A stretch of 13,613 bases of DNA from a virus (lineage: Duplodnaviria; Heunggongvirae; Uroviricota; Caudoviricetes), in the IMG/VR virus record IMGVR_UViG_2778261693_000009, one strand, 5' to 3'. Below are positions 1,009 to 13,613 of the stretch, piece after piece. Position 1 is the first letter of the stretch; the number at the start of each line of letters is the position of its first letter. The notes below the pieces were generated by a model. The model searched no databases. It had not been told where the DNA came from and saw only the letters and a program-made list of their open reading frames with translations. The position numbers and the translations under genes were made by a program.

Positions 1009-1081
1009 GTCCTCTTAGTTAAATGGATATAACGAGCCCCTCCTAAGGGCTAATTGCAGGTTCGATTCCTGCAGGGGACAC
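1009..1081 (+). tRNA. argW: tRNA-Arg, anticodon CCU (argW-type); 3' CCA not fully encoded
   Basis: Cloverleaf folded by hand: acceptor stem 1009..1015 pairs with 1073..1079 (one G-U pair); D-stem 1018..1021 with 1030..1033; anticodon stem 1035..1039 with 1047..1051; anticodon loop 1040..1046 (CTCCTAA, anticodon CCT at 1042..1044); T-stem 1056..1060 with 1068..1072; T-loop TTCGATT. Discriminator A at 1080 is followed by C-T-T rather than C-C-A. Confidence 0.9.
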
Positions 1082-1187: not shown

Positions 1188-1266
1188 CAACCTCGTGATG
1201 GTATAAGTGATGGTATTCCCCAGTTCGATATGCAGATACCATCAATTTACCAAAATGAGTACAGAT

Positions 1267-2541
1267 ATGGCCATTAATGTGCTTTCCCCCAAACAGATAG
1301 AAAACGCCAAGCCGAAGACCAATGATTACAAACTTACCGATGGAGGGAGTTTGTATCTACTGGTACGAAAGACTGGTGGAAAATACTGGCGTATGAATTA
1401 TCGTTTTGATGGAAAACAAGTGACATTGGCATTAGGGGTCTACCCAGATGTCTCACTTGCAACAGCGCGGAAACGGCGTGATGAAGCCAGGCAACTACTA
1501 GCCGATGGTCGTGATCCTCGCGAAGCAAAGAAACCCAAAAAGGAAGACCCAATTTCCCCCACGTTCGAGAGTGTTGCCAGAGAGTGGCATAGTGGAACGA
1601 TGGGGCATCCTGAGTGGAAAGAGATCACCCGTAAAAAAATTCTCCGAGAAATGGAAAACCACCTCTTTCCTGCCATCGGTTCAAAGCCTATCGATACGCT
1701 CAAAACCCGTGACTTGATGCCGATGCTGGTTGAGATGACTGAGAAAGGAATTGGTGCCACAACGAGCCGGGTAAAAACCACTATGACGAGCATCTTCCGT
1801 TATGCCGTGCAACGTGGAATTGTCGATTACAACCCTGCCCACGATCTAAAAGGTGCAATTACGACCCCCAAAGTACGACATCGCCCCGCACTACCTCTCG
1901 AACGTTTACCTGAACTGTTAGCGAAAACGAGAAGTTACACGGGAAGACCATTGACTCGCCTAGCAGTTCTATTTTCCCTGCACACTTTTGTGCGATCCAG
2001 CGAACTACGACATGCCAGATGGGAGGAGATCGACATTGAAAATGGGCTATGGACGATACCAGGACAACGTGAAGAGATCGCAGGGGTTAAATTCTCAGAG
2101 CGGGGTGCAAAGATGGGGGCTGCTCATTATGTCCCGCTATCTAGTCAGGCTATCGGGGTACTGGAGGATATAAGGAAAATCAGTGGTGAATATCTGCTGG
2201 TTTTCCCCGGTGACAGCAACCCATATAAACCGATGAGCGAAAACACAGTTAATAAAGCACTGCGAACGATGGGTTACGACACTCAAAGTGATGTTTGCTT
2301 GCATGGGTTCAGGGCGATGGCCTGCTCTGCACTGACCGAATCAGGACTCTGGTCACGCGATGCAGTTGAACGGCAGATGAGTCACCAAGAAAGAAACGAA
2401 GTGCGGGCAGCATATGTGCATCTTGCGCAGCACATGCAGGAACGCCGCAGAATGATGCAATGGTGGTCTAATTATCTGGAACTAAATAAGGACGAATTTC
2501 ATGCTCCTTATGACTTATCAGGTATTAACATTATCAATTAA
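1267..2541 (+). CDS. P4-type site-specific tyrosine integrase (N-terminal Arm-type DNA-binding domain plus C-terminal catalytic domain)
   Basis: Lies immediately downstream of the tRNA. N-terminus MAINVLSPKQIENAKP...DGGSLYLLVRKTGGKYWRMNYRFDGKQVTLALGVYPDVSLATARKRRDEAR is typical of P4-like integrase arm-binding domains. C-terminal region contains HGFRAMA and RAAYVH (candidate catalytic His/Arg/Tyr) and the tail RRRMMQWW seen in argW-targeting IntS-like integrases. Start is ambiguous: in-frame ATGs at 1207, 1255 and 1267, none with a strong SD. Confidence 0.85.
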   Translation: MAINVLSPKQIENAKPKTNDYKLTDGGSLYLLVRKTGGKYWRMNYRFDGKQVTLALGVYPDVSLATARKRRDEARQLLADGRDPREAKKPKKEDPISPTFESVAREWHSGTMGHPEWKEITRKKILREMENHLFPAIGSKPIDTLKTRDLMPMLVEMTEKGIGATTSRVKTTMTSIFRYAVQRGIVDYNPAHDLKGAITTPKVRHRPALPLERLPELLAKTRSYTGRPLTRLAVLFSLHTFVRSSELRHARWEEIDIENGLWTIPGQREEIAGVKFSERGAKMGAAHYVPLSSQAIGVLEDIRKISGEYLLVFPGDSNPYKPMSENTVNKALRTMGYDTQSDVCLHGFRAMACSALTESGLWSRDAVERQMSHQERNEVRAAYVHLAQHMQERRRMMQWWSNYLELNKDEFHAPYDLSGINIIN

Positions 2542-2571: not shown

Positions 2572-3453
2572 ATGCAGCATTCAAAAGAGAATGAAACTAT
2601 ATTCTTAGGAAATCTATGGATTGACAAAAAAATACCACCATTAGAATATTGTTCATTTGAACGCGCTTCAAGACTATTAGAATGCGAGATTGATGATTTA
2701 TTACACCTATACGAAATAGGCGCTTTTAATATCGCATTCAAGGCGGATGGACTTGCAGTTAGATTTAATGTTAATTTCCTCTATAAAAATCAGAAAATGG
2801 AAATTGACTTAATTCATCCCGTATTAACTAATCAATCACTAGAGATGGAATTTTCAACAATATGGTATGACCTTAAAGATGACTCCTTTGAACATTTTGA
2901 AAATGGGCTTCAAATTATAGGATTTGCCTGTGGTATTTGGTACGCCGATGATATGATAAGTGACATAAAAAATGGATTAGCTATAGATCCAGATTATGAA
3001 TTCAGGCTTAAACCGGTAAAAATACGAGATAATGTTTTGATGGCAACGGCCTCATATGAAGGAAATAAGGTCATTGATATTCCATTTGAAGATCTTCTTA
3101 TCATGCGAAGAGATTTAGAGTTAATATGGAAATCAGTAAAAACTGGAATTCCTATGCCAAGTTTACTTACGAAAAGAATTTCATCTGAACCTAAAATCCC
3201 CAAGCGATTAAATAACACTGCTGAGCATCATGCAAAAAATAGGGAGGGGTTATTAAATGCAGCCATATATATATTAGCAAAATACCCAAGCGAATGTCGT
3301 GGTGAAAGAAAAGAGATAAGTCCTGAAAAGTGGACTAACGCCATAATTAAACATTTAGGAGAGCTACCTCCAATATTTATCACTAATGAACAAGAAATCT
3401 TAAGAAAATTACGATTAGCGGTTAATCATGCGGGATTAAAACAAAAGGGGTAG
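2572..3453 (+). CDS. Hypothetical protein, 293 aa; AT-rich orphan cargo gene directly downstream of int
   Basis: Clean ORF with SD AGAGG 5 nt upstream of the ATG, 30 bp after the int stop. Markedly AT-rich by eye (roughly low-30s percent GC versus over 50 percent in the flanking core genes). No motif I recognise (no P-loop, no obvious nuclease or HTH signature, no hydrophobic segments). Confidence 0.7.
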   Translation: MQHSKENETIFLGNLWIDKKIPPLEYCSFERASRLLECEIDDLLHLYEIGAFNIAFKADGLAVRFNVNFLYKNQKMEIDLIHPVLTNQSLEMEFSTIWYDLKDDSFEHFENGLQIIGFACGIWYADDMISDIKNGLAIDPDYEFRLKPVKIRDNVLMATASYEGNKVIDIPFEDLLIMRRDLELIWKSVKTGIPMPSLLTKRISSEPKIPKRLNNTAEHHAKNREGLLNAAIYILAKYPSECRGERKEISPEKWTNAIIKHLGELPPIFITNEQEILRKLRLAVNHAGLKQKG

Positions 3454-3519
3454 ACTGAAACAATCTACAGGTAGAGTTGATTACACTACCTTCACAGCAT
3501 TTTGATATCCCCATAGTAT

Positions 3520-3547
3520 CTGCCGTGTTCATTACATAACACGGCAG
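3520..3547 (+). promoter_or_regulatory. Perfect 10-bp inverted repeat (CTGCCGTGTT / AACACGGCAG) with an 8-nt spacer, just upstream of alpA
   Basis: Left arm 3520..3529, right arm 3538..3547. The repeat encloses box 1 (TTCATTACATAAC) and its right arm overlaps the weak SD region of alpA (ATG at 3556). No T-run follows, so it is more likely an operator or translational-control hairpin than a terminator. Confidence 0.4.
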
Positions 3548-3555
3548 GTAATTTC

Positions 3556-3771
3556 ATGACATTAAAAACTTATCCTATCACTGGACATGCCCGCCCACGA
3601 GCTACTGCTGACTTTTTGCAAATAAGTACGGTTACTCTCTGGCGCTGGGAAAAGAACAATCCTGAATTTCCCAAATCTATACGCATTTCAAAACGGGTAT
3701 CTGTTTACGATGCACAAGAAATTAGGCAGTGGGTTAAAGCTCAATCAGCAGGATTGGAGGAAGTAGTGTAA
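3556..3771 (+). CDS. alpA: AlpA-family (prophage CP4-57 regulator-like) small DNA-binding regulator/excisionase-type protein
   Basis: 71-aa protein containing FLQISTVTLWRWEKNNPEFPKSIRISKRVSVYDAQEIRQWV, which fits the AlpA/Xis-type winged-helix pattern. Located between int and the replication module as in P4-like elements. Confidence 0.75.
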   Translation: MTLKTYPITGHARPRATADFLQISTVTLWRWEKNNPEFPKSIRISKRVSVYDAQEIRQWVKAQSAGLEEVV

Positions 3772-3790
3772 TGACAATATTAACAAAGCT

Positions 3791-3810
3791 GGGGAGAAAA
3801 AAGCCTCCCC
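3791..3810. terminator. Candidate bidirectional hairpin between convergent alpA and the RHH gene
   Basis: GGGGAG (3791..3796) / CTCCCC (3805..3810) 6-bp stem with an A-rich loop; on the minus strand the loop reads as a T-run. Weak as a terminator. Confidence 0.25.
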
Positions 3811-3820
3811 AACGTATTAA

Positions 3821-4015
3821 TCAATTCTTTGGTTCTAAACCTCGGCTTTGTAACTCTTTGCGTAGAATGCGCTTGATCCAAGCCGCTAGCGATTCATCGC
3901 CATCCTGCTGTTGTGCTTGTTCCATCAGTTCACGCAGTTCAGGGTCAAGTCGGAACTGGAATGGCGGATTCCCACGTCTTTCATTTTTGTGTGTTGACAC
4001 GTCAATTACACCCAT
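3821..4015 (-). CDS. Ribbon-helix-helix (Arc/MetJ-like) small DNA-binding protein, candidate repressor
   Basis: 64-aa protein; FQFRLDPELRELMEQAQQ...SLAAWIKRILRKEL fits a beta-strand then two helices (RHH fold). Transcribed divergently from the replication operon. Weak or absent SD. Confidence 0.55.
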   Translation of the reverse strand: MGVIDVSTHKNERRGNPPFQFRLDPELRELMEQAQQQDGDESLAAWIKRILRKELQSRGLEPKN

Positions 4016-4021
4016 TGTAAT
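3994..4021 (+). promoter_or_regulatory. Candidate sigma70 promoter for the rightward early/replication operon
   Basis: TTGACA at 3994..3999, 16-nt spacer, TGTAAT at 4016..4021. Overlaps the start of the divergent RHH gene and the TGTAATG/CATTACA repeats. Confidence 0.45.
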
Positions 4022-4049
4022 GTATTTATGTGTAATGACACATTACACA
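4003..4049. promoter_or_regulatory. Operator-like cluster of TGTAATG / CATTACA half-sites
   Basis: TGTAATG at 4016..4022 and 4031..4037, inverted CATTACA at 4041..4047, and related AATTACA at 4004..4010; all overlap the candidate promoter between the RHH gene and the rightward operon. Confidence 0.4.
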
Positions 4050-4131
4050 CAGAAAAACAAAATAGCAACGCCCCGGAGTGTTTGCAGCACCACCGAGGCG
4101 TCTGACCAGCACGTTATATGAGGTAACGAAG

Positions 4132-4308
4132 ATGGCTAAACAGAAGTGTACCTGGTTATTTGCGGCGATCAACCGCAGTCAACGTAATGCCCGTCCGGTG
4201 ATGTTAAGGATCACCGCAGATAACGAGCGATCAGCGCGGCGCAGACTTGCCCCGGACTATGTACTGAGCTTTGCCGGGCGCATTCCCTGCGGAGGTGAAC
4301 ATGCGTAA
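4132..4308 (+). CDS. Small protein resembling the Icd-like (host cell division inhibitor) family of P4-like elements; assignment from memory
   Basis: ATG at 4132 preceded by GAGG at 4121..4124. 58-aa product MAKQKCTWLFAAINRSQRNARPVMLRITADNERSARRRLAPDYVLSFAGRIP. Its 3' end overlaps the next ORF by 8 nt. Confidence 0.45.
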   Translation: MAKQKCTWLFAAINRSQRNARPVMLRITADNERSARRRLAPDYVLSFAGRIPCGGEHA

Positions 4309-4660
4309 TTATCCGCATCCCGGCGAACGCTGGCAGCATGAACGTGGCTGGACGGTCACGATTATCCGATTAATAGAAGCCTCGCCCTCTGTGGCGCTGG
4401 TTAATCCTGAATTCAGCTGTGAAGTGCTGATACGTCATGACAGCGACAACCAGCTTTCTTCCTGCCCTCTGGCATGGTTTGAACAGCGATATACGCGCCT
4501 GTTTGATGTACCGCTCTTTAAGCCTGCACCAGCTCCTGCAGGCGGTAGTGGTTCCGGCCCGCTGACACTGCATCCGTCTGTGCTATTTATCCGCTGGCGG
4601 GAGCGTAGCATATGGCGTTCTGCTGAGCCTGATGACGGTCACTATTCAAAGTTTCTCTGA
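4301..4660 (+). CDS. Hypothetical protein (119 aa), satellite early operon
   Basis: ATG at 4301 with SD GGAGG at 4291..4295; overlaps the upstream gene. GC-normal; no recognised motif. Confidence 0.55.
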   Translation: MRNYPHPGERWQHERGWTVTIIRLIEASPSVALVNPEFSCEVLIRHDSDNQLSSCPLAWFEQRYTRLFDVPLFKPAPAPAGGSGSGPLTLHPSVLFIRWRERSIWRSAEPDDGHYSKFL

Positions 4661-4691
4661 CAAAACACCGCTGAAAACGGAGTAATCCACA

Positions 4692-4976
4692 ATGAATATT
4701 TCAAACGGGCACAACGGTGCTCAGGGCCAGACTTTGCCTGAAAAACACAATACCGGTGCTTTTGCCTATGGGTTGTCAGAGGACGGTTTCGGAAAGCTGA
4801 CCCGCGCAAGAAATGCCTGCGACATGCTCCAGCTTCTCTTTTCTGAATACCCGTCTCAGGCCGGAGCACTGGACGCAGGCTGTGCGCCTGGTGTCGCCGC
4901 GCTGATGGAGTACCTGCGGGCAGATTTGACGGATATTGCACACAGCTGCGCACTGATTGAAGGAGGTGCCAGATGA
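4692..4976 (+). CDS. Hypothetical protein (94 aa), satellite early operon
   Basis: ATG at 4692 with SD-like ACGGAG upstream; its stop overlaps the next start (ATGA). Identity unknown. Confidence 0.5.
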   Translation: MNISNGHNGAQGQTLPEKHNTGAFAYGLSEDGFGKLTRARNACDMLQLLFSEYPSQAGALDAGCAPGVAALMEYLRADLTDIAHSCALIEGGAR

Positions 4977-5356
4977 ACCAGCCGCAGGTTTCCATTTTCC
5001 CGGCAGAAATGACCACCGCGCTTTACCGGCGGGCTATTGCTTCAGCATGGCGGCAGAAAATGCTGAACGAAACTGGCAATGATCAGTATGGTCCGCACAG
5101 CCTGACGGTGGAGCGTATTGAAATGGCCATTGCGCTGCATATCGAGTGCGCACTGATTAACGAGTACGGCGAAGCACAGGGCGCCGCTGCCGCGCTGGCA
5201 CTGCTGACTGACATGCTGGAGCCGTCACTGCTGACCGCGCCGCCGGTACTGACCGCGCGCGGTTGTGAAGTAATGGCGGAGATGTACCGCACGCTTCCGG
5301 CGGCCTTTGATGTCTGCTGCAGTACCGGTGTGACGTTGTATCAGGGGGAAGTATGA
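4973..5356 (+). CDS. Hypothetical protein (127 aa), translationally coupled to the primase gene
   Basis: ATG at 4973 with SD GGAGG; its stop overlaps the primase start (ATGA at 5353..5356). Confidence 0.5.
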   Translation: MNQPQVSIFPAEMTTALYRRAIASAWRQKMLNETGNDQYGPHSLTVERIEMAIALHIECALINEYGEAQGAAAALALLTDMLEPSLLTAPPVLTARGCEVMAEMYRTLPAAFDVCCSTGVTLYQGEV

Positions 5357-8025
5357 CAATACAGACGGTTACGCAGATTTCAGCCGCCGCGCGGGGGAAA
5401 TGGCCCGTTATTCTGCAGATGCTGCGTATTGATGTACCTGAAAACGGCAGGCACGGTCCCTGCCCGAAATGTGGGGGCAAGGATCGTTTTCGCCTTGATG
5501 ACCTTGACGGGCGCGGGACGTGGATCTGCAGCCAGTGTGGCAATGGTGACGGTCTGGATCTGGTTAAGCTCGTAACCGGTTACAGCGTCAGAAAGGCTGC
5601 GCAGGAGGTGGCGCAGGTGCTTAATGTGCCGGATGTGCAGGAACTGCCTGTTAAGCCTGCCAGACAAAAAGCCCCTAAACGCGACATGGGTCTTACCGTG
5701 GCGGCGCTGATGAAAGAGAGCCACACGGGAGAAAGCGCCTATCTGACAGGAAAAGGGTTCGCCGGATACCCGGCCTCTCTGACCGGAAGCGTGCAGCATA
5801 TCAGCGGTAAGGATTTTCCTGCCGGTTCCCTGCTGTTACCACTCACGACCAACACCGGAGCCGTGACCGGTGCACAGCTTATCGCCCCGACGGGTGAAAA
5901 AAGCATACTGCCCGGCAGCACGATGAAAGGCGCGTTTGTGTCGCTCAGCCCGTTACCGTCTGAACCACCGGTACAGGTGGTGATTACCGAAGGTTACGCT
6001 ACGGCGCTGACGGTAAGCCAGCTCACTGCCGGATGCGTAGTGGCTGCCATATCTGCGGGCAACCTGCCCAATGTGGCGCAGTCGCTGCGGGCACGCTGGC
6101 CTGAGGTAAAAATTATCATCGCCGGTGATAACGATTTTCAGGATGGGGGGGAGAATCCCGGCAGAGCCTTTGCTGAACGGGCGGCAAAAGTTGTTGGCGG
6201 CTGGATGACGCTGCCACCAGGAGAGATTAAGGCTGACTGGAATGACTTTCATCGGGAGCACGGTATTACCCGTGCCCGTGAAGCCTTTCGCAACGGTCTG
6301 GTACTGTGCGGGGAAGGCCGCACGCAACTGCCGCACGGGTTCCGTCTTACCCAGGAATATCTCTGGTATGAAAAGCAGGTACAGCGCAACGGTGAGACGG
6401 AGATCCAGAACGTCAAAATATGCAGCCCGCTGCGCGTGACGGCAATCACCTGCGATGCCGATGGCGGTAACTTCGGACGACTGCTGGAATGGGAAGATAC
6501 GTGGGGTGAGCGTCGCCGCTGGGCGATGCCGATGGAAATGCTGAGCGGCAGTGGTGAGGAACTGCGCCGGGTACTGCTGGTTAACGGGCTGTCTTATATC
6601 AGCACTACCGGTGAGGCACGCGCACGCCTGATGGAATATATCTCACTGTGTAAACCGGAACGCCGCGTGACCTGCGTCAGCCGTACTGGCTGGCATGGTC
6701 AGGTTTACGTCCTGCAGGATGAGGTCAGCGGTGAAGGTGCAGAGGGTGTCATTCTCCAGACCACTTCCGTGCAGGGGCGTGATTTCCGCGTGTCGGGCAC
6801 AACAGAGGAATGGCGGGAGAACGTATCCCGCTACTGTACCGGCAACTCTCGCGTGGCATTTGCTGTCAGCCTGGCCTTTGCTGCACCACTGTTACGGCTG
6901 GTTGGTATGGACGGCGGCGGCTACCACCTCAAAGGGGAATCGACAGACGGTAAGACCACCACCATGAAAGCGGCAACCTCCGTCTGCGGCGGGCCTGACT
7001 ACTGGCAGACATGGCGGGCCACCGGCAACGCGCTGGAGGGATGCGCCAGCCGCCGCAACGATGCCGCCATGATGCTTGATGAGATCCGGGAAGTTGACGG
7101 ACGCGAGGCAGGCAATATCGCCTACATGCTGGCAAACGGTCAGGGCAAGGGCCGTGCCGGTACGGACGGTGAGCTGCGTACCCGTAAGCAGTGGCGCCTG
7201 TTGTTCTTTTCAACTGGCGAGTTGTCTCTGACCGAACATGCGGCAAAGGCCGGTGAGCGTACTTTTGCCGGGATGGAAGTCAGGATGATCCAGATCCCCA
7301 GCGATTCCGGGAAATTTGGCGTTTTTGAGGAGCTGCACGGCTTCGACAGCGGCAAGGCTCTGGCAGAGCATCTTGAATGGGCCACGTCCTGCTACTACGG
7401 TTCGCCGTTCCGGGAGTGGCTAAAAGCACTGACCGCTGATCTTAACGGACTAACGGCACAGGCAAAATCGCTGATGAAGGAATATGCTGCCGCCCTGACT
7501 CCGAAAGATGCAGGCAACCAGGTGGGCCGGGCTGTGAATCGCTTTGCACTGGTGGCGATGGCGGGTGAACTGGCAACCCGTCTGGGTATCACCGGCTGGC
7601 CTGAGGGTGAAGCACTGCGGGCAACCCGCGTCTGCCTGAACGCATGGCTGAAAGATCGCGGGCACACCGCCAATCAGGAAGATATTGCCGCACTGGAGCA
7701 GGTTCGCAGTTTCTTTACCGCGAATCAGTACAGCCGCTTTGCAGACTGGTATGACGAGCGCAACCGCCCCGGCAATATGGTGGGCTGGCGCAGGGTGGAG
7801 AAAGGCAGTACCGCGCAGGGCACGGAAGCTGTCACTACGTTCTATGTCATGCCGTCCGGCTGGAAAGAAATCTGCAGGGGATTTGACCCGCGCAAGGTGG
7901 CGCGTCTGTGCGCAGATCGTGGATACCTGCTGCCCTCCACTGATGGCAAACTCCAGACAACCATTCGCCCGCCAGAGATGAATCCCCGCAGGCTCTATGT
8001 CTTCAACAGCGAGGTGCCGGGTTAA
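5353..8025 (+). CDS. P4 alpha-like bifunctional DNA primase-helicase (zinc ribbon, TOPRIM, D5/SF3-type P-loop NTPase)
   Basis: 890-aa ORF with SD GGGGGAAG. Zinc ribbon C37-P-K-C40 ... C59-S-Q-C62. TOPRIM-like ITEGY (nt about 5984..6001) and AGDNDF (nt about 6121..6138). Walker A GESTDGKT (nt about 6934..6960) and Walker B MMLDEI (nt about 7066..7083). Confidence 0.9.
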   Translation: MTIQTVTQISAAARGKWPVILQMLRIDVPENGRHGPCPKCGGKDRFRLDDLDGRGTWICSQCGNGDGLDLVKLVTGYSVRKAAQEVAQVLNVPDVQELPVKPARQKAPKRDMGLTVAALMKESHTGESAYLTGKGFAGYPASLTGSVQHISGKDFPAGSLLLPLTTNTGAVTGAQLIAPTGEKSILPGSTMKGAFVSLSPLPSEPPVQVVITEGYATALTVSQLTAGCVVAAISAGNLPNVAQSLRARWPEVKIIIAGDNDFQDGGENPGRAFAERAAKVVGGWMTLPPGEIKADWNDFHREHGITRAREAFRNGLVLCGEGRTQLPHGFRLTQEYLWYEKQVQRNGETEIQNVKICSPLRVTAITCDADGGNFGRLLEWEDTWGERRRWAMPMEMLSGSGEELRRVLLVNGLSYISTTGEARARLMEYISLCKPERRVTCVSRTGWHGQVYVLQDEVSGEGAEGVILQTTSVQGRDFRVSGTTEEWRENVSRYCTGNSRVAFAVSLAFAAPLLRLVGMDGGGYHLKGESTDGKTTTMKAATSVCGGPDYWQTWRATGNALEGCASRRNDAAMMLDEIREVDGREAGNIAYMLANGQGKGRAGTDGELRTRKQWRLLFFSTGELSLTEHAAKAGERTFAGMEVRMIQIPSDSGKFGVFEELHGFDSGKALAEHLEWATSCYYGSPFREWLKALTADLNGLTAQAKSLMKEYAAALTPKDAGNQVGRAVNRFALVAMAGELATRLGITGWPEGEALRATRVCLNAWLKDRGHTANQEDIAALEQVRSFFTANQYSRFADWYDERNRPGNMVGWRRVEKGSTAQGTEAVTTFYVMPSGWKEICRGFDPRKVARLCADRGYLLPSTDGKLQTTIRPPEMNPRRLYVFNSEVPG

Positions 8026-8052
8026 GGCTTTGCGTGAGTCTTATTTATTAAG

Positions 8053-8247
8053 GGTAACAGGTGAAACAGGTGAAACAACCGTATTTTACAGGGCTGAACC
8101 TGTTCCACCTTCTGAAATAGTGAGGTGGAACAGATGTAACGCCAGCCAATCCGCTGTTCCACCTTGTTACCCGCGATGTTCCACCGGTGCAGTGTATATA
8201 AGTGCTTTATAAAACAAAGCTGTAACACATGTTTCACCTGTTCCACC
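8053..8247. repeat. Iteron cluster; candidate replication origin (P4 ori/crr-like) bound by the alpha protein
   Basis: Nine-mer TGTT(C/T)CACC in both orientations: GGTGAAACA at 8060..8068 and 8069..8077 (tandem, period 9, preceded by degenerate GGTAACA); TGTTCCACC at 8101..8109, 8155..8163, 8177..8185, 8239..8247; inverse GGTGGAACA at 8124..8132; TGTTTCACC at 8230..8238. An AT-rich stretch at 8191..8226 lies between clusters. Non-coding and immediately downstream of the primase-helicase gene. Confidence 0.7.
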
Positions 8248-8335
8248 GCATCAGGGACATAAAGCAGACTGAAACTGAGGGCATTTTTATCTGGCTGGCT
8301 TTCATAGCCACGTCTGAATAACCGCAAGCGCCCGT

Positions 8336-8391
8336 TGTGCCAGCCACCACACACTGAGTACCGATAGTGTGCTTGTGTCAGCCACGACACA
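8336..8391 (+). promoter_or_regulatory. Candidate Ogr/Delta-dependent late promoter (two TGT-N12-ACA dyads) upstream of the sid-like gene
   Basis: TGT(8336..8338)-N12-ACA(8351..8353) and TGT(8374..8376)-N12-ACA(8389..8391), both within 90 bp upstream of the ATG at 8426. The first dyad sits about 55 bp upstream of a plausible transcription start. Confidence 0.35.
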
Positions 8392-8425
8392 ATTGACGTA
8401 ACGAACCAACCCGACAGGAGAAGTC

Positions 8426-9169
8426 ATGAACAACACCGCAGTGAATAACAACCTTTCCACTTTTCCGGCTGTAACGCAGCGGGCACTGGAAACCATGAAC
8501 ACAGCCAGAAACGCATGGCTTGAAGCACGTCGTCAGCAGAAAGCGGCAGCGGATAATATTGCGACAATCCGCCAGCGTCGCGCTGAGATGGAAGCCACGA
8601 CGAACACACTGAATGAGGAGTGGCGCACGCTGTTTCGTGAAAGTCAGGGCGTGGTTTCAAAGGAAATGAAAAAACTGCGCACGGAAATTGCGCTGGGACG
8701 AGAAACGCTTGAGGATTTTGATGAGCTGCTGGCGGCTCAGGAAAGCGAAAATGCACTTTTGCCGCAGAAAGCTGCGGAATTAGCCGGAAAGTATATCCAC
8801 GCGCATAACATTCTTGTGGATATTCGCGCAAAACAAATCTGGGAAGATTTTATGCAATCGCATGGAAAAGCGCTTATTCAGACGCTGAGCCTGCTTAAAT
8901 CCACAATGGGCCGGGAAGCCAGTGCCGTTGTGGGTGTGGTGAATTCAGTTAATGACCCGGACACAGTGCTGAAAGACTTTATTCATAAACATATCACCAG
9001 ACCGGCTCTGGCTAACGATGCGATGCCTGAACAGGACCCGGTGTTTAAACTGGCGGGAATTGCCCCGGATTATGCGGCGCGTCTGGATTTCAGTAATCAA
9101 CTCTCTCCGGCAGCTATGCATAAAATTAAGGTTCGTCAGGAACTTGCTGAGAAGGAGAAAGCAGTATGA
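8426..9169 (+). CDS. Sid-like protein (candidate capsid size-determination scaffold); assignment by size, position and predicted helical character
   Basis: 247 aa (P4 Sid is about 244 aa). SD AGGAG at 8416..8420. Charged, helix-prone sequence rich in A/E/R/K/Q. First gene of a three-gene operon ending in an Ogr/Delta-like gene. Confidence 0.4.
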   Translation: MNNTAVNNNLSTFPAVTQRALETMNTARNAWLEARRQQKAAADNIATIRQRRAEMEATTNTLNEEWRTLFRESQGVVSKEMKKLRTEIALGRETLEDFDELLAAQESENALLPQKAAELAGKYIHAHNILVDIRAKQIWEDFMQSHGKALIQTLSLLKSTMGREASAVVGVVNSVNDPDTVLKDFIHKHITRPALANDAMPEQDPVFKLAGIAPDYAARLDFSNQLSPAAMHKIKVRQELAEKEKAV

Positions 9170-9717
9170 CGGCCCGAGGCACGCCTGACCAGGCACTTAC
9201 CAGTTTTCGGAATGCCCGTATTCTGTGGGCCGGACATAGTGAGAGCCGAAAAGCCGTTGAACAACAGATAGCATCTCTCCTCGCTGCCACAGAAAAACCA
9301 GCAGATTATGCCCGACAGCTCGAATTACTGCGGGAACGTCTGGATGTGCTGAAATGGCAAATTAACTGTGCTGCGCGCGAATGCATTTACTCGCAGCATT
9401 TACTGATGGAAGCCTGCACAGAAGCCGCTCTCAGCAATTTTATGCAGGCGAATGGGGCAGCCCTGACATCTGCACTGGCTCCGTTCCTGAAGGGGCGCGG
9501 GGGGGTTGACGTTGCGTCCCGTATATTACGCAGTGCTCTGGTTCGCCAGCTGACAATAACACCGCCTGAAATTGCCGGGGATTATCGTGAGATCCTGGAT
9601 GAATCCGGTTTGATGCCTGACCCCGGGATGATTCGTGATTGCCAGGGCTCTTACACCCCGGCACAACATCTGCGTTTTCAGCAACGCCTGAATGACATTA
9701 ACGATATACAGGAGTGA
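9166..9717 (+). CDS. Psu-like protein (polarity suppression / capsid decoration family); from size and remembered motifs
   Basis: 183 aa (P4 Psu is about 190 aa). Start overlaps the upstream stop (ATGA). Contains KWQINCAARECIY and FMQANGAALTSALAP, which resemble my recollection of P4 Psu. Shares the local motif FMQxxGxAL with the upstream 247-aa protein. Confidence 0.45.
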   Translation: MTARGTPDQALTSFRNARILWAGHSESRKAVEQQIASLLAATEKPADYARQLELLRERLDVLKWQINCAARECIYSQHLLMEACTEAALSNFMQANGAALTSALAPFLKGRGGVDVASRILRSALVRQLTITPPEIAGDYREILDESGLMPDPGMIRDCQGSYTPAQHLRFQQRLNDINDIQE

Positions 9718-9792
9718 TATTAATGGCACTTAAATGTCCGGAATGCGGTACAGTTGCACACGCCAGAACAGCAGCCTATGAAGCTCCGTCAG

Positions 9793-9796
9793 TTAA
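9793..9796. repeat. IS5 target-site duplication, left copy (TTAA)
   Basis: TTAA immediately precedes the left IS5 inverted repeat. Confidence 0.8.
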
Positions 9797-10991
<1,195 letters not shown>

Positions 10992-10995
10992 TTAA
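10992..10995. repeat. IS5 target-site duplication, right copy (TTAA)
   Basis: TTAA immediately follows the right IS5 inverted repeat. Confidence 0.8.
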
Positions 10996-11214
10996 ACGCT
11001 CGTGGTATCAGTGCCAGAATCTGGAATGTTCCTGCACATTTACGGCACTGGAGAGTGTGGATAAGATAATCATGAAACCCCGACGCAATGAACAGCTATC
11101 AGACAAAGCACAATCCCCGGAAAAACAACAGCAAACACTTAATCGCTATGGCTCCGCGTCAAAACTTTCAAGCCGTCAGCAGATTCCTGTCTGATTAGAA
11201 AGAACGCCCACGTA

Positions 11215-11240
11215 ATCCCGGTCCAGTACCGGGATTTTTT
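11215..11240 (+). terminator. Rho-independent terminator closing the late operon
   Basis: ATCCCGG (11215..11221) / CCGGGAT (11229..11235) 7-bp stem with a 7-nt loop, followed by a T-run (11235..11240). About 20 bp after the Ogr/Delta-like stop. Confidence 0.7.
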
Positions 11241-11402
11241 ATCCCCTTTTCCTGGCTGGCATGAGAGCGAATGAGTGCATGTCTATGGCGCATGAAAACG
11301 CATGAGTCTTATGCACCATTTTTGACGAGAAAACCCTTGTTTGGTGGCTTCTGAGACGATTTATGAGGTGCATGAAAACCAGTCTGTTAAGCGAAGCGGG
11401 CA

Positions 11403-11421
11403 GGCGTGCGGGGCTGCGCAC
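11403..11421. other. Candidate degenerate cos-like sequence (P2/P4-type cohesive end); low confidence
   Basis: GGCGTGCGGGGCTGCGCAC loosely resembles the P2/P4 19-nt cohesive end GGCGAGGCGGGGAAAGCAC as I remember it (about 12 of 19 ungapped). It sits between the late operon and the AT-rich cargo, where cos lies in P4. Confidence 0.2.
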
Positions 11422-11621
11422 GGAGGCGGAATAAATAGTAATGCTATGGATGCTGGGCACACATAGATAAGAGGTTTACAAATAGTATGCTTGTTGTCGT
11501 AACTGATAGGGGTCTATCAAAATCAGAAATCAAAAACAGTATTTCGTGTAATTTATAGAATTTTCACAGAAAACATATACAATCGTTTCTGATACAGGAG
11601 TCTGATTAAGTTGGGATTATT

Positions 11622-13613
11622 ATGGCCATTCAAAAAAAACAAACAAAAAATTCTGAAAGAAGTATTAAAAGCCAGTTAGAAAAACTTACGGCTGAAAAAG
11701 CCATTTCCGAATATATTTGGAATGCTTTTGATGCTGAAGCCACAAATATTAATATTACAGTTATCCCAAATGGTTTAAGTGGGATATCTTCAATAGAAAT
11801 TATTGATGATGGAACTGGCATCGATTTTAATGAAGTCGATGAAACTTTCGGGCAGTTTTTAGATTCCAAGAAGAAAGCAAAACGAACGCCTGTCACAAGA
11901 GGACATAAAGGTAAGGGGCGGTTTTCATTCTGTAAATTCGCTGATAAAGCCGAATGGACTAGCTGGCGTAATGGAGAGAAATTTACGCTAACTATAGTTT
12001 CATCACATCTAAATGAATATGAGCATTCAGATTTATCCATGTGCTCTCATAAAAATTCTGGAACTAAGGTGGTCTTTAATCCTGTAACAATTACTGAAGA
12101 TTATTTTAATTCAATAGTTATACCCTATTTGCAGAACGATATATCTTGGCTGTTGGTGGCCAAACCAAAATTAAAATTAAAAATAAACGGTCAATCTATT
12201 AGCCCAATAGGATATGCTTCAACTTCAAATAATATTGAATTTGGAGAGGTCGATTTTAATTCAAAAACAGTTATATGGTCTAGTAAACCTGTAGTAGAAA
12301 AATCATATATATATTATTTAAATAATCAAGGTGATATTGTTTACAAAGAGTTTTCTGAGATGAACAAAAAAGGATTTGATTGTTCATCCTATGTCACATC
12401 AAGTTGGTTTGATGATTTTTCTGAATCAAACGACTTGTTTAATGAATCGAAAAACAGTGTTGACTCAGATATTTTTAAATACATTAGCCTACATGTTAAA
12501 GGTAATTTAAGGGAAGAGTATAGAAAATATAAAAATAATGCAGCAGATCAACTCATTCAAAACTATTTAAATGAGGGTGTGTTTCCAGAATATAAAGGTG
12601 AGAATAGAATGCTCAATGAATTTAAAAGGAATCAACTCATTGAAACTATAAAGATAATTTATGAGGCCGAACCTCAAATTTTCTCCACACTAAACAAGAA
12701 ACAAAAAAAAATCTTAATTAAACTATTAGATAGAATTGTTGAAACCAATAATTTATCCAGTCTCTTTGACATTTTTGAAGGTATAGTTTCCCTATCCGAA
12801 GATGAGGTTGATAAACTTTCATCTGTAATAAAAAGAAGTTCACTTTCTAATATTACGAGGACTTTGTCATTTATTAATGATAGACTGGATGTTATTGATT
12901 ATTTTAAAAAAATACTATATGAGAAAAAGAAAGAATCATATGAAGTAAAGCACATTCAAAAGAGCATAGAAAATAATTTATGGCTTTTTGGAGAGCAATA
13001 CACTCTAGTTGCATCAGAAGATGATAAGTTTGATAAAGCTCTTAGAAAGTATCTGGAGAAGACTAAAGGTTTTAACGAAGCACATTATAATAAGTATAGT
13101 GTACAGCATCCAGATAAAAATAAAGAAATGGATATATTTGCAGCACAAAAAATAAAGCGTTACACTGAAAATAATGAAGAATATTTTCATTGCATTGTGA
13201 TTGAATTAAAGAAACCAAGTATAAAACTCGGTGATGAAGAACTCGCACAAATAAAGTTATATAAAAATATAATATCTGCGACTGATGAATTTAAAGACGA
13301 TAATACAAAATGGGATTTTATTTTAGTGGGAAATGATATATCTAATAGCAATATCACTGCTGCAAATTTATCATCAGATCTAGAAACGAATAAAATACAT
13401 GGTGAGTTTGGCTTGGTTCAAAAAACAACAAATATGAAAATTTACGTCAAAACGTGGAAGCAAATTTTAAATGAGTATGATCTTAGATATAACGACCTGA
13501 TCGATAAGCTTAAGTTGAAAGAGTTAGAAATTGCAGAAGATATGGGGCCTGATGAACTCACGGCAAAAATTTTAGAAAAAACGGCAAGACTTCCGACTTC
13601 GATACAGGCTTAG
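11622..13613 (+). CDS. GHKL-family (Bergerat-fold) ATPase with a C-terminal PD-(D/E)xK-like putative nuclease region; AT-rich cargo gene and candidate anti-phage factor
   Basis: 663-aa complete ORF whose stop codon is the last three bases of the window. Weak SD GGGA 5 nt upstream. N-terminal motifs: E30-x3-N34-x2-D37-A38 (EYIWNAFDA), D62-D-G64-T-G66 (G1 box), G94-x2-G97-x-G99-R-F (G2-like). C-terminal motifs: D504 (EMDIF) ... E528-L-K530 (IVIELKK) ... Q543. Very AT-rich by eye (about 30 percent GC), unlike the satellite core. Confidence 0.75.
   Translation: MAIQKKQTKNSERSIKSQLEKLTAEKAISEYIWNAFDAEATNINITVIPNGLSGISSIEIIDDGTGIDFNEVDETFGQFLDSKKKAKRTPVTRGHKGKGRFSFCKFADKAEWTSWRNGEKFTLTIVSSHLNEYEHSDLSMCSHKNSGTKVVFNPVTITEDYFNSIVIPYLQNDISWLLVAKPKLKLKINGQSISPIGYASTSNNIEFGEVDFNSKTVIWSSKPVVEKSYIYYLNNQGDIVYKEFSEMNKKGFDCSSYVTSSWFDDFSESNDLFNESKNSVDSDIFKYISLHVKGNLREEYRKYKNNAADQLIQNYLNEGVFPEYKGENRMLNEFKRNQLIETIKIIYEAEPQIFSTLNKKQKKILIKLLDRIVETNNLSSLFDIFEGIVSLSEDEVDKLSSVIKRSSLSNITRTLSFINDRLDVIDYFKKILYEKKKESYEVKHIQKSIENNLWLFGEQYTLVASEDDKFDKALRKYLEKTKGFNEAHYNKYSVQHPDKNKEMDIFAAQKIKRYTENNEEYFHCIVIELKKPSIKLGDEELAQIKLYKNIISATDEFKDDNTKWDFILVGNDISNSNITAANLSSDLETNKIHGEFGLVQKTTNMKIYVKTWKQILNEYDLRYNDLIDKLKLKELEIAEDMGPDELTAKILEKTARLPTSIQA

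Follow-up and report, generated by a model that had tools for sequence, protein, structure and literature searches.

A predicted GHKL ATPase-nuclease, remotely homologous to VcSduA, as single-gene cargo of a P4-like satellite

Organization of the satellite

The window analyzed here, a stretch of 13,613 nucleotides from IMG/VR virus record IMGVR_UViG_2778261693_000009, contains a P4-like satellite in tRNA-Arg(CCT), adjoining yfdC (Table 1). The window coordinate of attL was computed from an offset of 3800 in locus L001 (E. coli PRO_A-1407-6W-A). Genes for an integrase, small regulators, a DUF5375 protein, a primase, a Sid-like protein and Psu are followed by a delta gene (Ogr/Delta) that an IS5 element interrupts at codon 25/26, and the apparent 90-aa ORF at 10922-11194 consists of the IS end joined to the C-terminus of delta. 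This insertion is missing from both complete E. coli genomes with the satellite (5426 searched). Transactivation of helper late genes by the satellite in the window is probably no longer possible. Satellites of E. coli AH21 (L002 12761-13794) and Salmonella (L083 6496-7529) lack a separate psu and carry a 253-aa Sid/Psu-fold gene followed by delta.

An intrinsic terminator behind the delta remnant sets the last gene of the window, which encodes a GHKL ATPase-nuclease, apart from the satellite late genes. A simple sigma-70 scan upstream of this gene was negative. The canonical P2/P4 cos 19-mer, GGCGAGGCGGGGAAAGCAC, was not found within three mismatches, and only a related GC-rich stretch stands in its place, pointing to a helper whose cos sequence differs. 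Overlapping the cos-like region is a 73-aa ORF with a GTG start that is conserved in L001 and L002 (13840-14061); its conservation is probably due to the cos region and not to a gene. The first-pass annotation had placed the cargo gene directly after the late operon, a terminator and a putative cos region. The terminator and the cos-like stretch are indeed there, but the late operon is not intact, since delta is split by IS5.

In the circular form, the order is int...alpha-sid-psu-delta, terminator and cos-like stretch, GHKL gene and attR, with the GHKL gene lying between psu/delta and att-int. The P4 defense hotspot is the psu-to-int interval, which holds variable cargo adjacent to cos (Rousset 2022). 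The GHKL gene is variable cargo within this same interval, as the first-pass annotation had proposed, here without a canonical cos.

Directly after int lies another AT-rich (33.6% GC) variable slot; the 293-aa ORF that occupies it in the window matched nothing in Pfam, PHROG or PADLOC. The slot holds a 324-aa protein in E. coli AH21, only 24% identical to that of the window, and a 260-aa ORF without Pfam matches in the Salmonella satellite. It may be a second cargo or defense position of this P4-like satellite lineage.

Table 1. Features of the satellite and of its GHKL cargo gene (window coordinates).
Feature	Position	Strand	Basis or remark
tRNA-Arg(CCT)	1009-1081		
attL core TTCGATTCCTGCAGGG, within 3' end of tRNA-Arg(CCT)	1061-1076	+	16-bp direct repeat in L001 and L002
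Integrase	1207-2541		
293-aa ORF	2572-3453	+	
Small regulators, then DUF5375 gene	between 293-aa ORF and primase		
Primase/DUF927	5353-8025		
Sid-like Psu-fold gene, 247 aa	8426-9169		
psu, 183 aa	9166-9717		
IS5 element, 1195 bp, ends GGAAGGTGCGAATAAG..., inside delta (Ogr/Delta)	9797-10991		target duplication TTAA at 9793-9796 and 10992-10995
IS5 transposase ORF	9943-10959	-	
Intrinsic terminator after delta remnant	11214-11236	+	9-bp stem, 5 GC pairs, then T-run
73-aa ORF	11239-11460	-	
Candidate cos-like GC-rich stretch GGCGTGCGGGGCTGCGCAC	11403-11421	.	read by eye
Complete 663-aa gene (GHKL ATPase, middle domain, helical linker, PD-(D/E)xK nuclease)	11622-13613	+	ORF and translation
GHKL (Bergerat) ATP-binding domain, aa ~23-152	11688-12077	+	Pfam HATPase_c_3, invariant residues, profile matches
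Middle (transducer/S5-like) beta-rich domain, aa ~159-270	12096-12431	+	AF2 model alignments; hhalign to VcSduA middle domain
Long alpha-helical linker region, aa ~283-434	12468-12923	+	DSSP of AF2 model; collinear with equivalent VcSduA region
Predicted PD-(D/E)xK nuclease domain, aa ~440-612; catalytic set E458, D504, E528-L-K530, Q543	12939-13457	+	

The cargo gene and its predicted domains

The stop codon of the GHKL gene is the final codon of the window (ORF and translation), and full-length members of its family have 650 to 690 aa; phrog_6203 matches the protein over its full length (E=1e-78). The GC content of the gene is 30.5%, compared to 54.5% in the satellite core (3500-9796), and its AT richness bears out the separate acquisition proposed in the first-pass annotation. 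Compared with the E. coli AH21 copy (91% identity), dN/dS is 0.08 and all catalytic residues are kept. The gene is under strong purifying selection.

Residue conservation was assessed in an alignment of 41 homologs with identities as low as 31%. The protein has the defining features of the GHKL superfamily, namely motif I (ExxxNxxD; here E30-x3-N34-x2-D37), motif II (DxGxG; D62-x-G64-x-G66), a G2 box (G94..G97-x-G99-R100) and a predicted Bergerat fold. Residues N34, D37, G64, G97, G99 and R100 are invariant, and E30, A38, D62, G66 and G94 are conserved in at least 90%. Residues 23-136 match Pfam HATPase_c_3 (E=2.5e-20), as does each of the 41 family members, and the domain also has profile matches to Mlh1/PMS2/MutL/TopoVI-B. 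At the C-terminus, D504, E528, K530 and Q543 are invariant, as is E458, which completes the classical E-D-ExK set. HSDR_N_2, a PD-(D/E)xK family, matches aa 476-553 below its gathering score (E=3.6e-4) and is matched by 37 of the 41 members. The complete ORF, its GHKL motifs and the four nuclease residues D504, E528, K530 and Q543 had been read from the sequence in the first-pass annotation, and all positions proved exact.

In an AlphaFold2 model built from the family alignment (mean pLDDT, 81.9), a GHKL domain is followed by a beta-rich middle domain, a long helical region and a C-terminal alpha/beta domain. In a Foldseek search against the PDB (E of about 1e-11), the N-terminal ~400 residues resemble the N and M domains of Hsp90/TRAP1, MutL LN40, MORC2 and GyrB43, to which the model aligns over 310 to 440 columns. 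These residues are predicted to form a GHKL-plus-transducer module, in agreement with the Bergerat-fold N-terminus of the first-pass annotation. For the S5-type middle domain, alignment to MutL LN40 covers 282 to 312 columns with a TM score of 0.44 to 0.48 on the target, a comparison at the level of the fold. Helices of the linker span residues 283-318, 329-349, 359-374, 378-388 and 393-434 (DSSP). Because the GHKL half dominated the full-length fold search, the C-terminus was modeled separately. Its predicted fold is PD-(D/E)xK, the type previously proposed for the named residues, with MspJI and AspBHI, both modification-dependent enzymes, and McrC as best Foldseek matches. HMM searches with the C-terminal profile against the PDB gave no relevant match.

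Relationship to VcSduA, Shedu and paraMORC3

The architecture is of the paraMORC3 or Shedu type I-D-like kind. The first-pass annotation had considered the gene a candidate undescribed defense system outside any named family, and neither point can be upheld. The paraMORC3 architecture, comprising GHKL, S5 and a C-terminal restriction endonuclease-fold domain with E-D-ExK, was described by Iyer, Abhiman and Aravind (2008; PMC2292703) as patchy in Proteobacteria and Bacteroidota and often standalone, with a predicted R-M-linked or repair role rather than that of an autonomous defense gene. The protein studied here shares the GHKL domain, the S5-type or transducer-type middle domain, the E-D-ExK C-terminus, a sporadic distribution with Proteobacteria and Bacteroidota at its center, and an often standalone gene without a conserved neighborhood.

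GHKL (HATPase_c_3)-fused proteins have since been placed in type 1D Shedu (Gu et al. 2023; bioRxiv 10.1101/2023.08.10.552793), and one system of this design has been validated experimentally. VcSduA, a 673-aa protein encoded by a single gene of the Vibrio cholerae island VSP-II(WASA), combines an N-terminal GHKL ATPase with a C-terminal PD-(D/E)xK domain, protects against Drexlerviridae and vibriophage X29 at all multiplicities of infection tested, and loses its activity upon E27A or K557A substitution (Adams et al. 2025; PMC12137116). Pairwise BLAST between the GHKL protein and VcSduA aligned only the G1 and G2 boxes. Alignment of family profiles with hhalign, the VcSduA family having been gathered using the first 399 aa of VcSduA (bioRxiv supplement), gave a probability of 96.5% and E=9.8e-10 over 529 collinear columns at 19% identity, spanning residues 40-642 of the GHKL protein and 54-672 of VcSduA. 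The catalytic residues are in register (D504 with D527, E528/K530 with E555/K557, and Q543 with Q575), and the motifs KEMDIF and VVELKRP pair with KEPDLL and VIEIKRP, respectively. By these profile comparisons, the protein is a remote full-length homolog of VcSduA with the same architecture. Both are single genes for about 670 aa with identical domain order, a common (V/I)E(L/I)K(R/K)P motif and carriage on mobile islands.

The two also differ. Motif I reads EYIWNxFDA in the GHKL clade and FEAVxNSIHS in VcSduA, HATPase_c_3 matches VcSduA with E=0.048 compared to 2.5e-20 here, and the carrier is a P4-like satellite rather than VSP-II. The signature EYIWN, near-invariant in the clade, is absent from the hit list of the published MacSyFinder model for VcSduA, 543 entries from RefSeq complete genomes only whose stored sequences are truncated at about 500 characters and which include none from Escherichia. 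On sequence grounds, the clade is separate from the VcSduA family. PADLOC v2 detected neither family as a defense system, and Pfam DUF4263 (PF14082) matched none of the 41 members of the GHKL family, nor the VcSduA family. The nuclease domain resembles NucS, FokI or Avs3 at least as closely as it does Shedu, and canonical SduA (B. cereus, 8TI9; E. coli, 8PS4) has a Whirly/PC4-type N-terminal sensor in contrast to the GHKL ATPase found here.

More distant comparisons are confined to individual domains or to the general design. Like MutL, MORC and Hsp90, the protein has a Bergerat fold, a transducer domain and ATP-lid glycine boxes; unlike MutL, it has no MutL C-terminal endonuclease/dimerization domain and is mobile-element cargo instead of a housekeeping gene. 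The analogy to OLD and Gabija GajA drawn in the first-pass annotation stands as a concept, the fusion of an ATPase and a nuclease in one defense protein, but not for the types involved: OLD and GajA use ABC-type ATPases and TOPRIM nucleases. The protein has no PADLOC, Pfam or NCBIfam match to OLD or GajA, and membership in MzaB was rejected by PADLOC and NCBIfam profile searches.

Overall, the GHKL gene is best described as a divergent, predicted member of a known and recently validated design and not as a new kind of system. It is possible but doubtful that the clade forms a functionally distinct GHKL-nuclease defense family and not just another Shedu, a reading that arises because the nuclease resembles NucS or FokI at least as much as DUF4263, because the GHKL domain is much more canonical than that of VcSduA, and because the gene travels as a minimal cassette through satellites, prophage moron slots and integrons. 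GHKL proteins are usually dimers, and Shedu proteins are tetramers. A distinct family could respond to another trigger, or employ a dimeric ATP-gated clamp unlike the tetramer/octamer activation of canonical Shedu.

A single gene in varied cargo slots

In L001 and L002, 16 bp of the tRNA 3' end are repeated as attR at distances of 535 and 611 bp past the GHKL stop codon, beyond the end of the window. The GHKL gene is therefore the final gene in the element, with no partner downstream of it, which settles the concern of the first-pass annotation that partner genes might lie beyond the window. Between the stop codon and attR there are only TTG- or GTG-start ORFs of up to 79 aa, unannotated and without a conserved family neighbor, and a small partner ORF was rejected on these grounds. 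The core gene dsdC comes next after the satellite in E. coli AH21. In E. coli PRO_A-1407-6W-A (L001 16935-24524), a second integrase-bearing element sits in tandem directly after the satellite attR, carrying an integrase, a rolling-circle Rep and, on the opposite strand, an 826-aa SIR2-family protein.

Neighborhoods across the family point the same way. When all ORFs within four genes of a homolog were clustered, no neighbor family was shared by more than 4 of the roughly 80 loci. Immediate neighbors are mixed, mostly type I R-M subunits, OLD/AbiEii-type AAA ATPases, Schlafen, UvrD and PIN proteins, resolvases, recombinases and type IV secretion system coupling proteins.

Relatives occur in at least 486 species among species-representative genomes, distributed over Proteobacteria, Bacteroidota, Firmicutes, Chloroflexota, Cyanobacteria and one archaeal MAG, and an exhaustive HMMER search yielded about 875 clusters at 50% identity (E<=1e-30). 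A Salmonella homolog (94% identity) occupies the same post-delta slot in a P4-like satellite at another chromosomal site, and a Dickeya homolog (62%) lies between Ogr/Delta and int of a capsid-encoding satellite. In Yersinia enterocolitica (73%; L084 7343-12481), the gene belongs to a lambdoid prophage and lies in the interval from antiterminator Q to the holin genes, where it adjoins a HicAB toxin-antitoxin system; this interval is the slot in which lambdoid phages carry morons. A Vibrio homolog (52%; L087 7001-8959) forms exactly one cassette between attC/VCR repeats of a chromosomal superintegron. Its contig (L087 1-15709) holds an array of about 20 attC/VCR-type repeats of about 130 nt, and GmrSD_N and HEPN cassettes lie nearby in L088, of the same contig family. 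Distant homologs were found on 44 plasmids and in two Pasteurella phages. Movement of the same gene is documented among satellites, prophages, integrons and plasmids, four kinds of slot for single-gene cargo. GHKL, HATPase, MORC and MutL are unmentioned in Rousset 2022, Domainator 2024, the 2026 NAR P2/P4 hotspot paper and two integron-cassette screens, and Shedu is named once, generically, across them; GHKL-nucleases are a cargo type unreported in the P4-hotspot papers examined.

Proposed function and alternative explanations

In the reading that we prefer, with a probability of roughly 0.7, the protein is an anti-phage nuclease of the GHKL-ATPase/PD-(D/E)xK type that acts on its own, and its gene is single-gene cargo in the variable slot between delta and att/int of a P4-like satellite. 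This reading builds on what the analysis of the protein and its loci shows: the predicted domain folds, the invariant catalytic residues, purifying selection, single-gene autonomy, varied mobile carriage and remote full-length homology to VcSduA. In the proposed mechanism, the GHKL domain and transducer at the N-terminus would dimerize when ATP binds, much as they do in MutL, Hsp90 and MORC. The dimer would form a clamp and, acting by way of the helical linker, allow the E-D-ExK nuclease at the C-terminus to cleave the DNA of an infecting phage. Defense would call for ATP turnover as well as nuclease catalysis. By analogy with VcSduA and from general GHKL biology, we infer ATPase and nuclease activity, dimerization, a defense phenotype with its trigger and DNA target, and a non-abortive mode of action.

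An unlikely alternative is that the protein is a modification-dependent (type IV-like) or other restriction-type enzyme, in which a GHKL motor would loop or translocate DNA between recognition and cleavage, possibly with an unlinked methylase. Such looping or translocation by MORC/paraMORC proteins in R-M operons was proposed by Iyer et al. (PMC2292703), whose contextual argument speaks for it, as do the modification-dependent enzymes and McrC among the best structural matches of the nuclease domain, the PADLOC REase_II models that match the N-terminus in 19 of 41 members, and the type I R-M genes among the most frequent neighbors. However, the element has no methylase, the gene has no conserved neighbor, and Pfam found no PUA/SRA-type modified-base reader domain. 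The REase_II matches are confined to the generic GHKL region, and VcSduA targets unmodified T1-like phages (PMC12137116).

Less probable again is a role in the life cycle of the satellite itself or in conflict with its helper, for example by cutting P2-like helper DNA to bias packaging. Satellites are known to interfere with helper phages, and the gene adjoins a cos-like region in both the P4-like and the Dickeya satellites. Against this, close homologs are not restricted to satellites but also occur in a lambdoid prophage, in a superintegron cassette and on plasmids, and P4 genes are absent at 78 of 80 species-representative loci. In the window, moreover, delta has been wrecked by IS5, yet the GHKL gene has stayed intact, with a 1-nt difference to the copy in L001.

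It is highly improbable that the protein serves DNA repair or chromosome maintenance in the manner of MutL, or is a toxic nuclease of the addiction type, without a role in phage defense: the N-terminus is similar to MutL/PMS2 and a repair role has been raised for standalone paraMORC3 (Iyer 2008; PMC2292703), but NCBIfam MutL (TIGR00585) reaches 29.5 bits against a cutoff of 180 and over aa 27-83 only, with no MutL C-terminal domain, the gene, which 2 of 5426 complete E. coli genomes carry, is rare, patchy in its occurrence and always in mobile-element cargo slots, and the homologous VcSduA has a demonstrated defense role (PMC12137116).

From its sequence relationships, then, the GHKL gene is very probably an anti-phage gene, and its clade would represent a widespread branch of a validated single-gene defense design that databases label only as "ATP-binding protein" and that both PADLOC v2 and the published VcSduA model miss. 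The clade bears on whether the GHKL-gated nuclease mechanism extends beyond VcSduA, and if it were shown to be defensive, a detection model covering hundreds of species would be justified.
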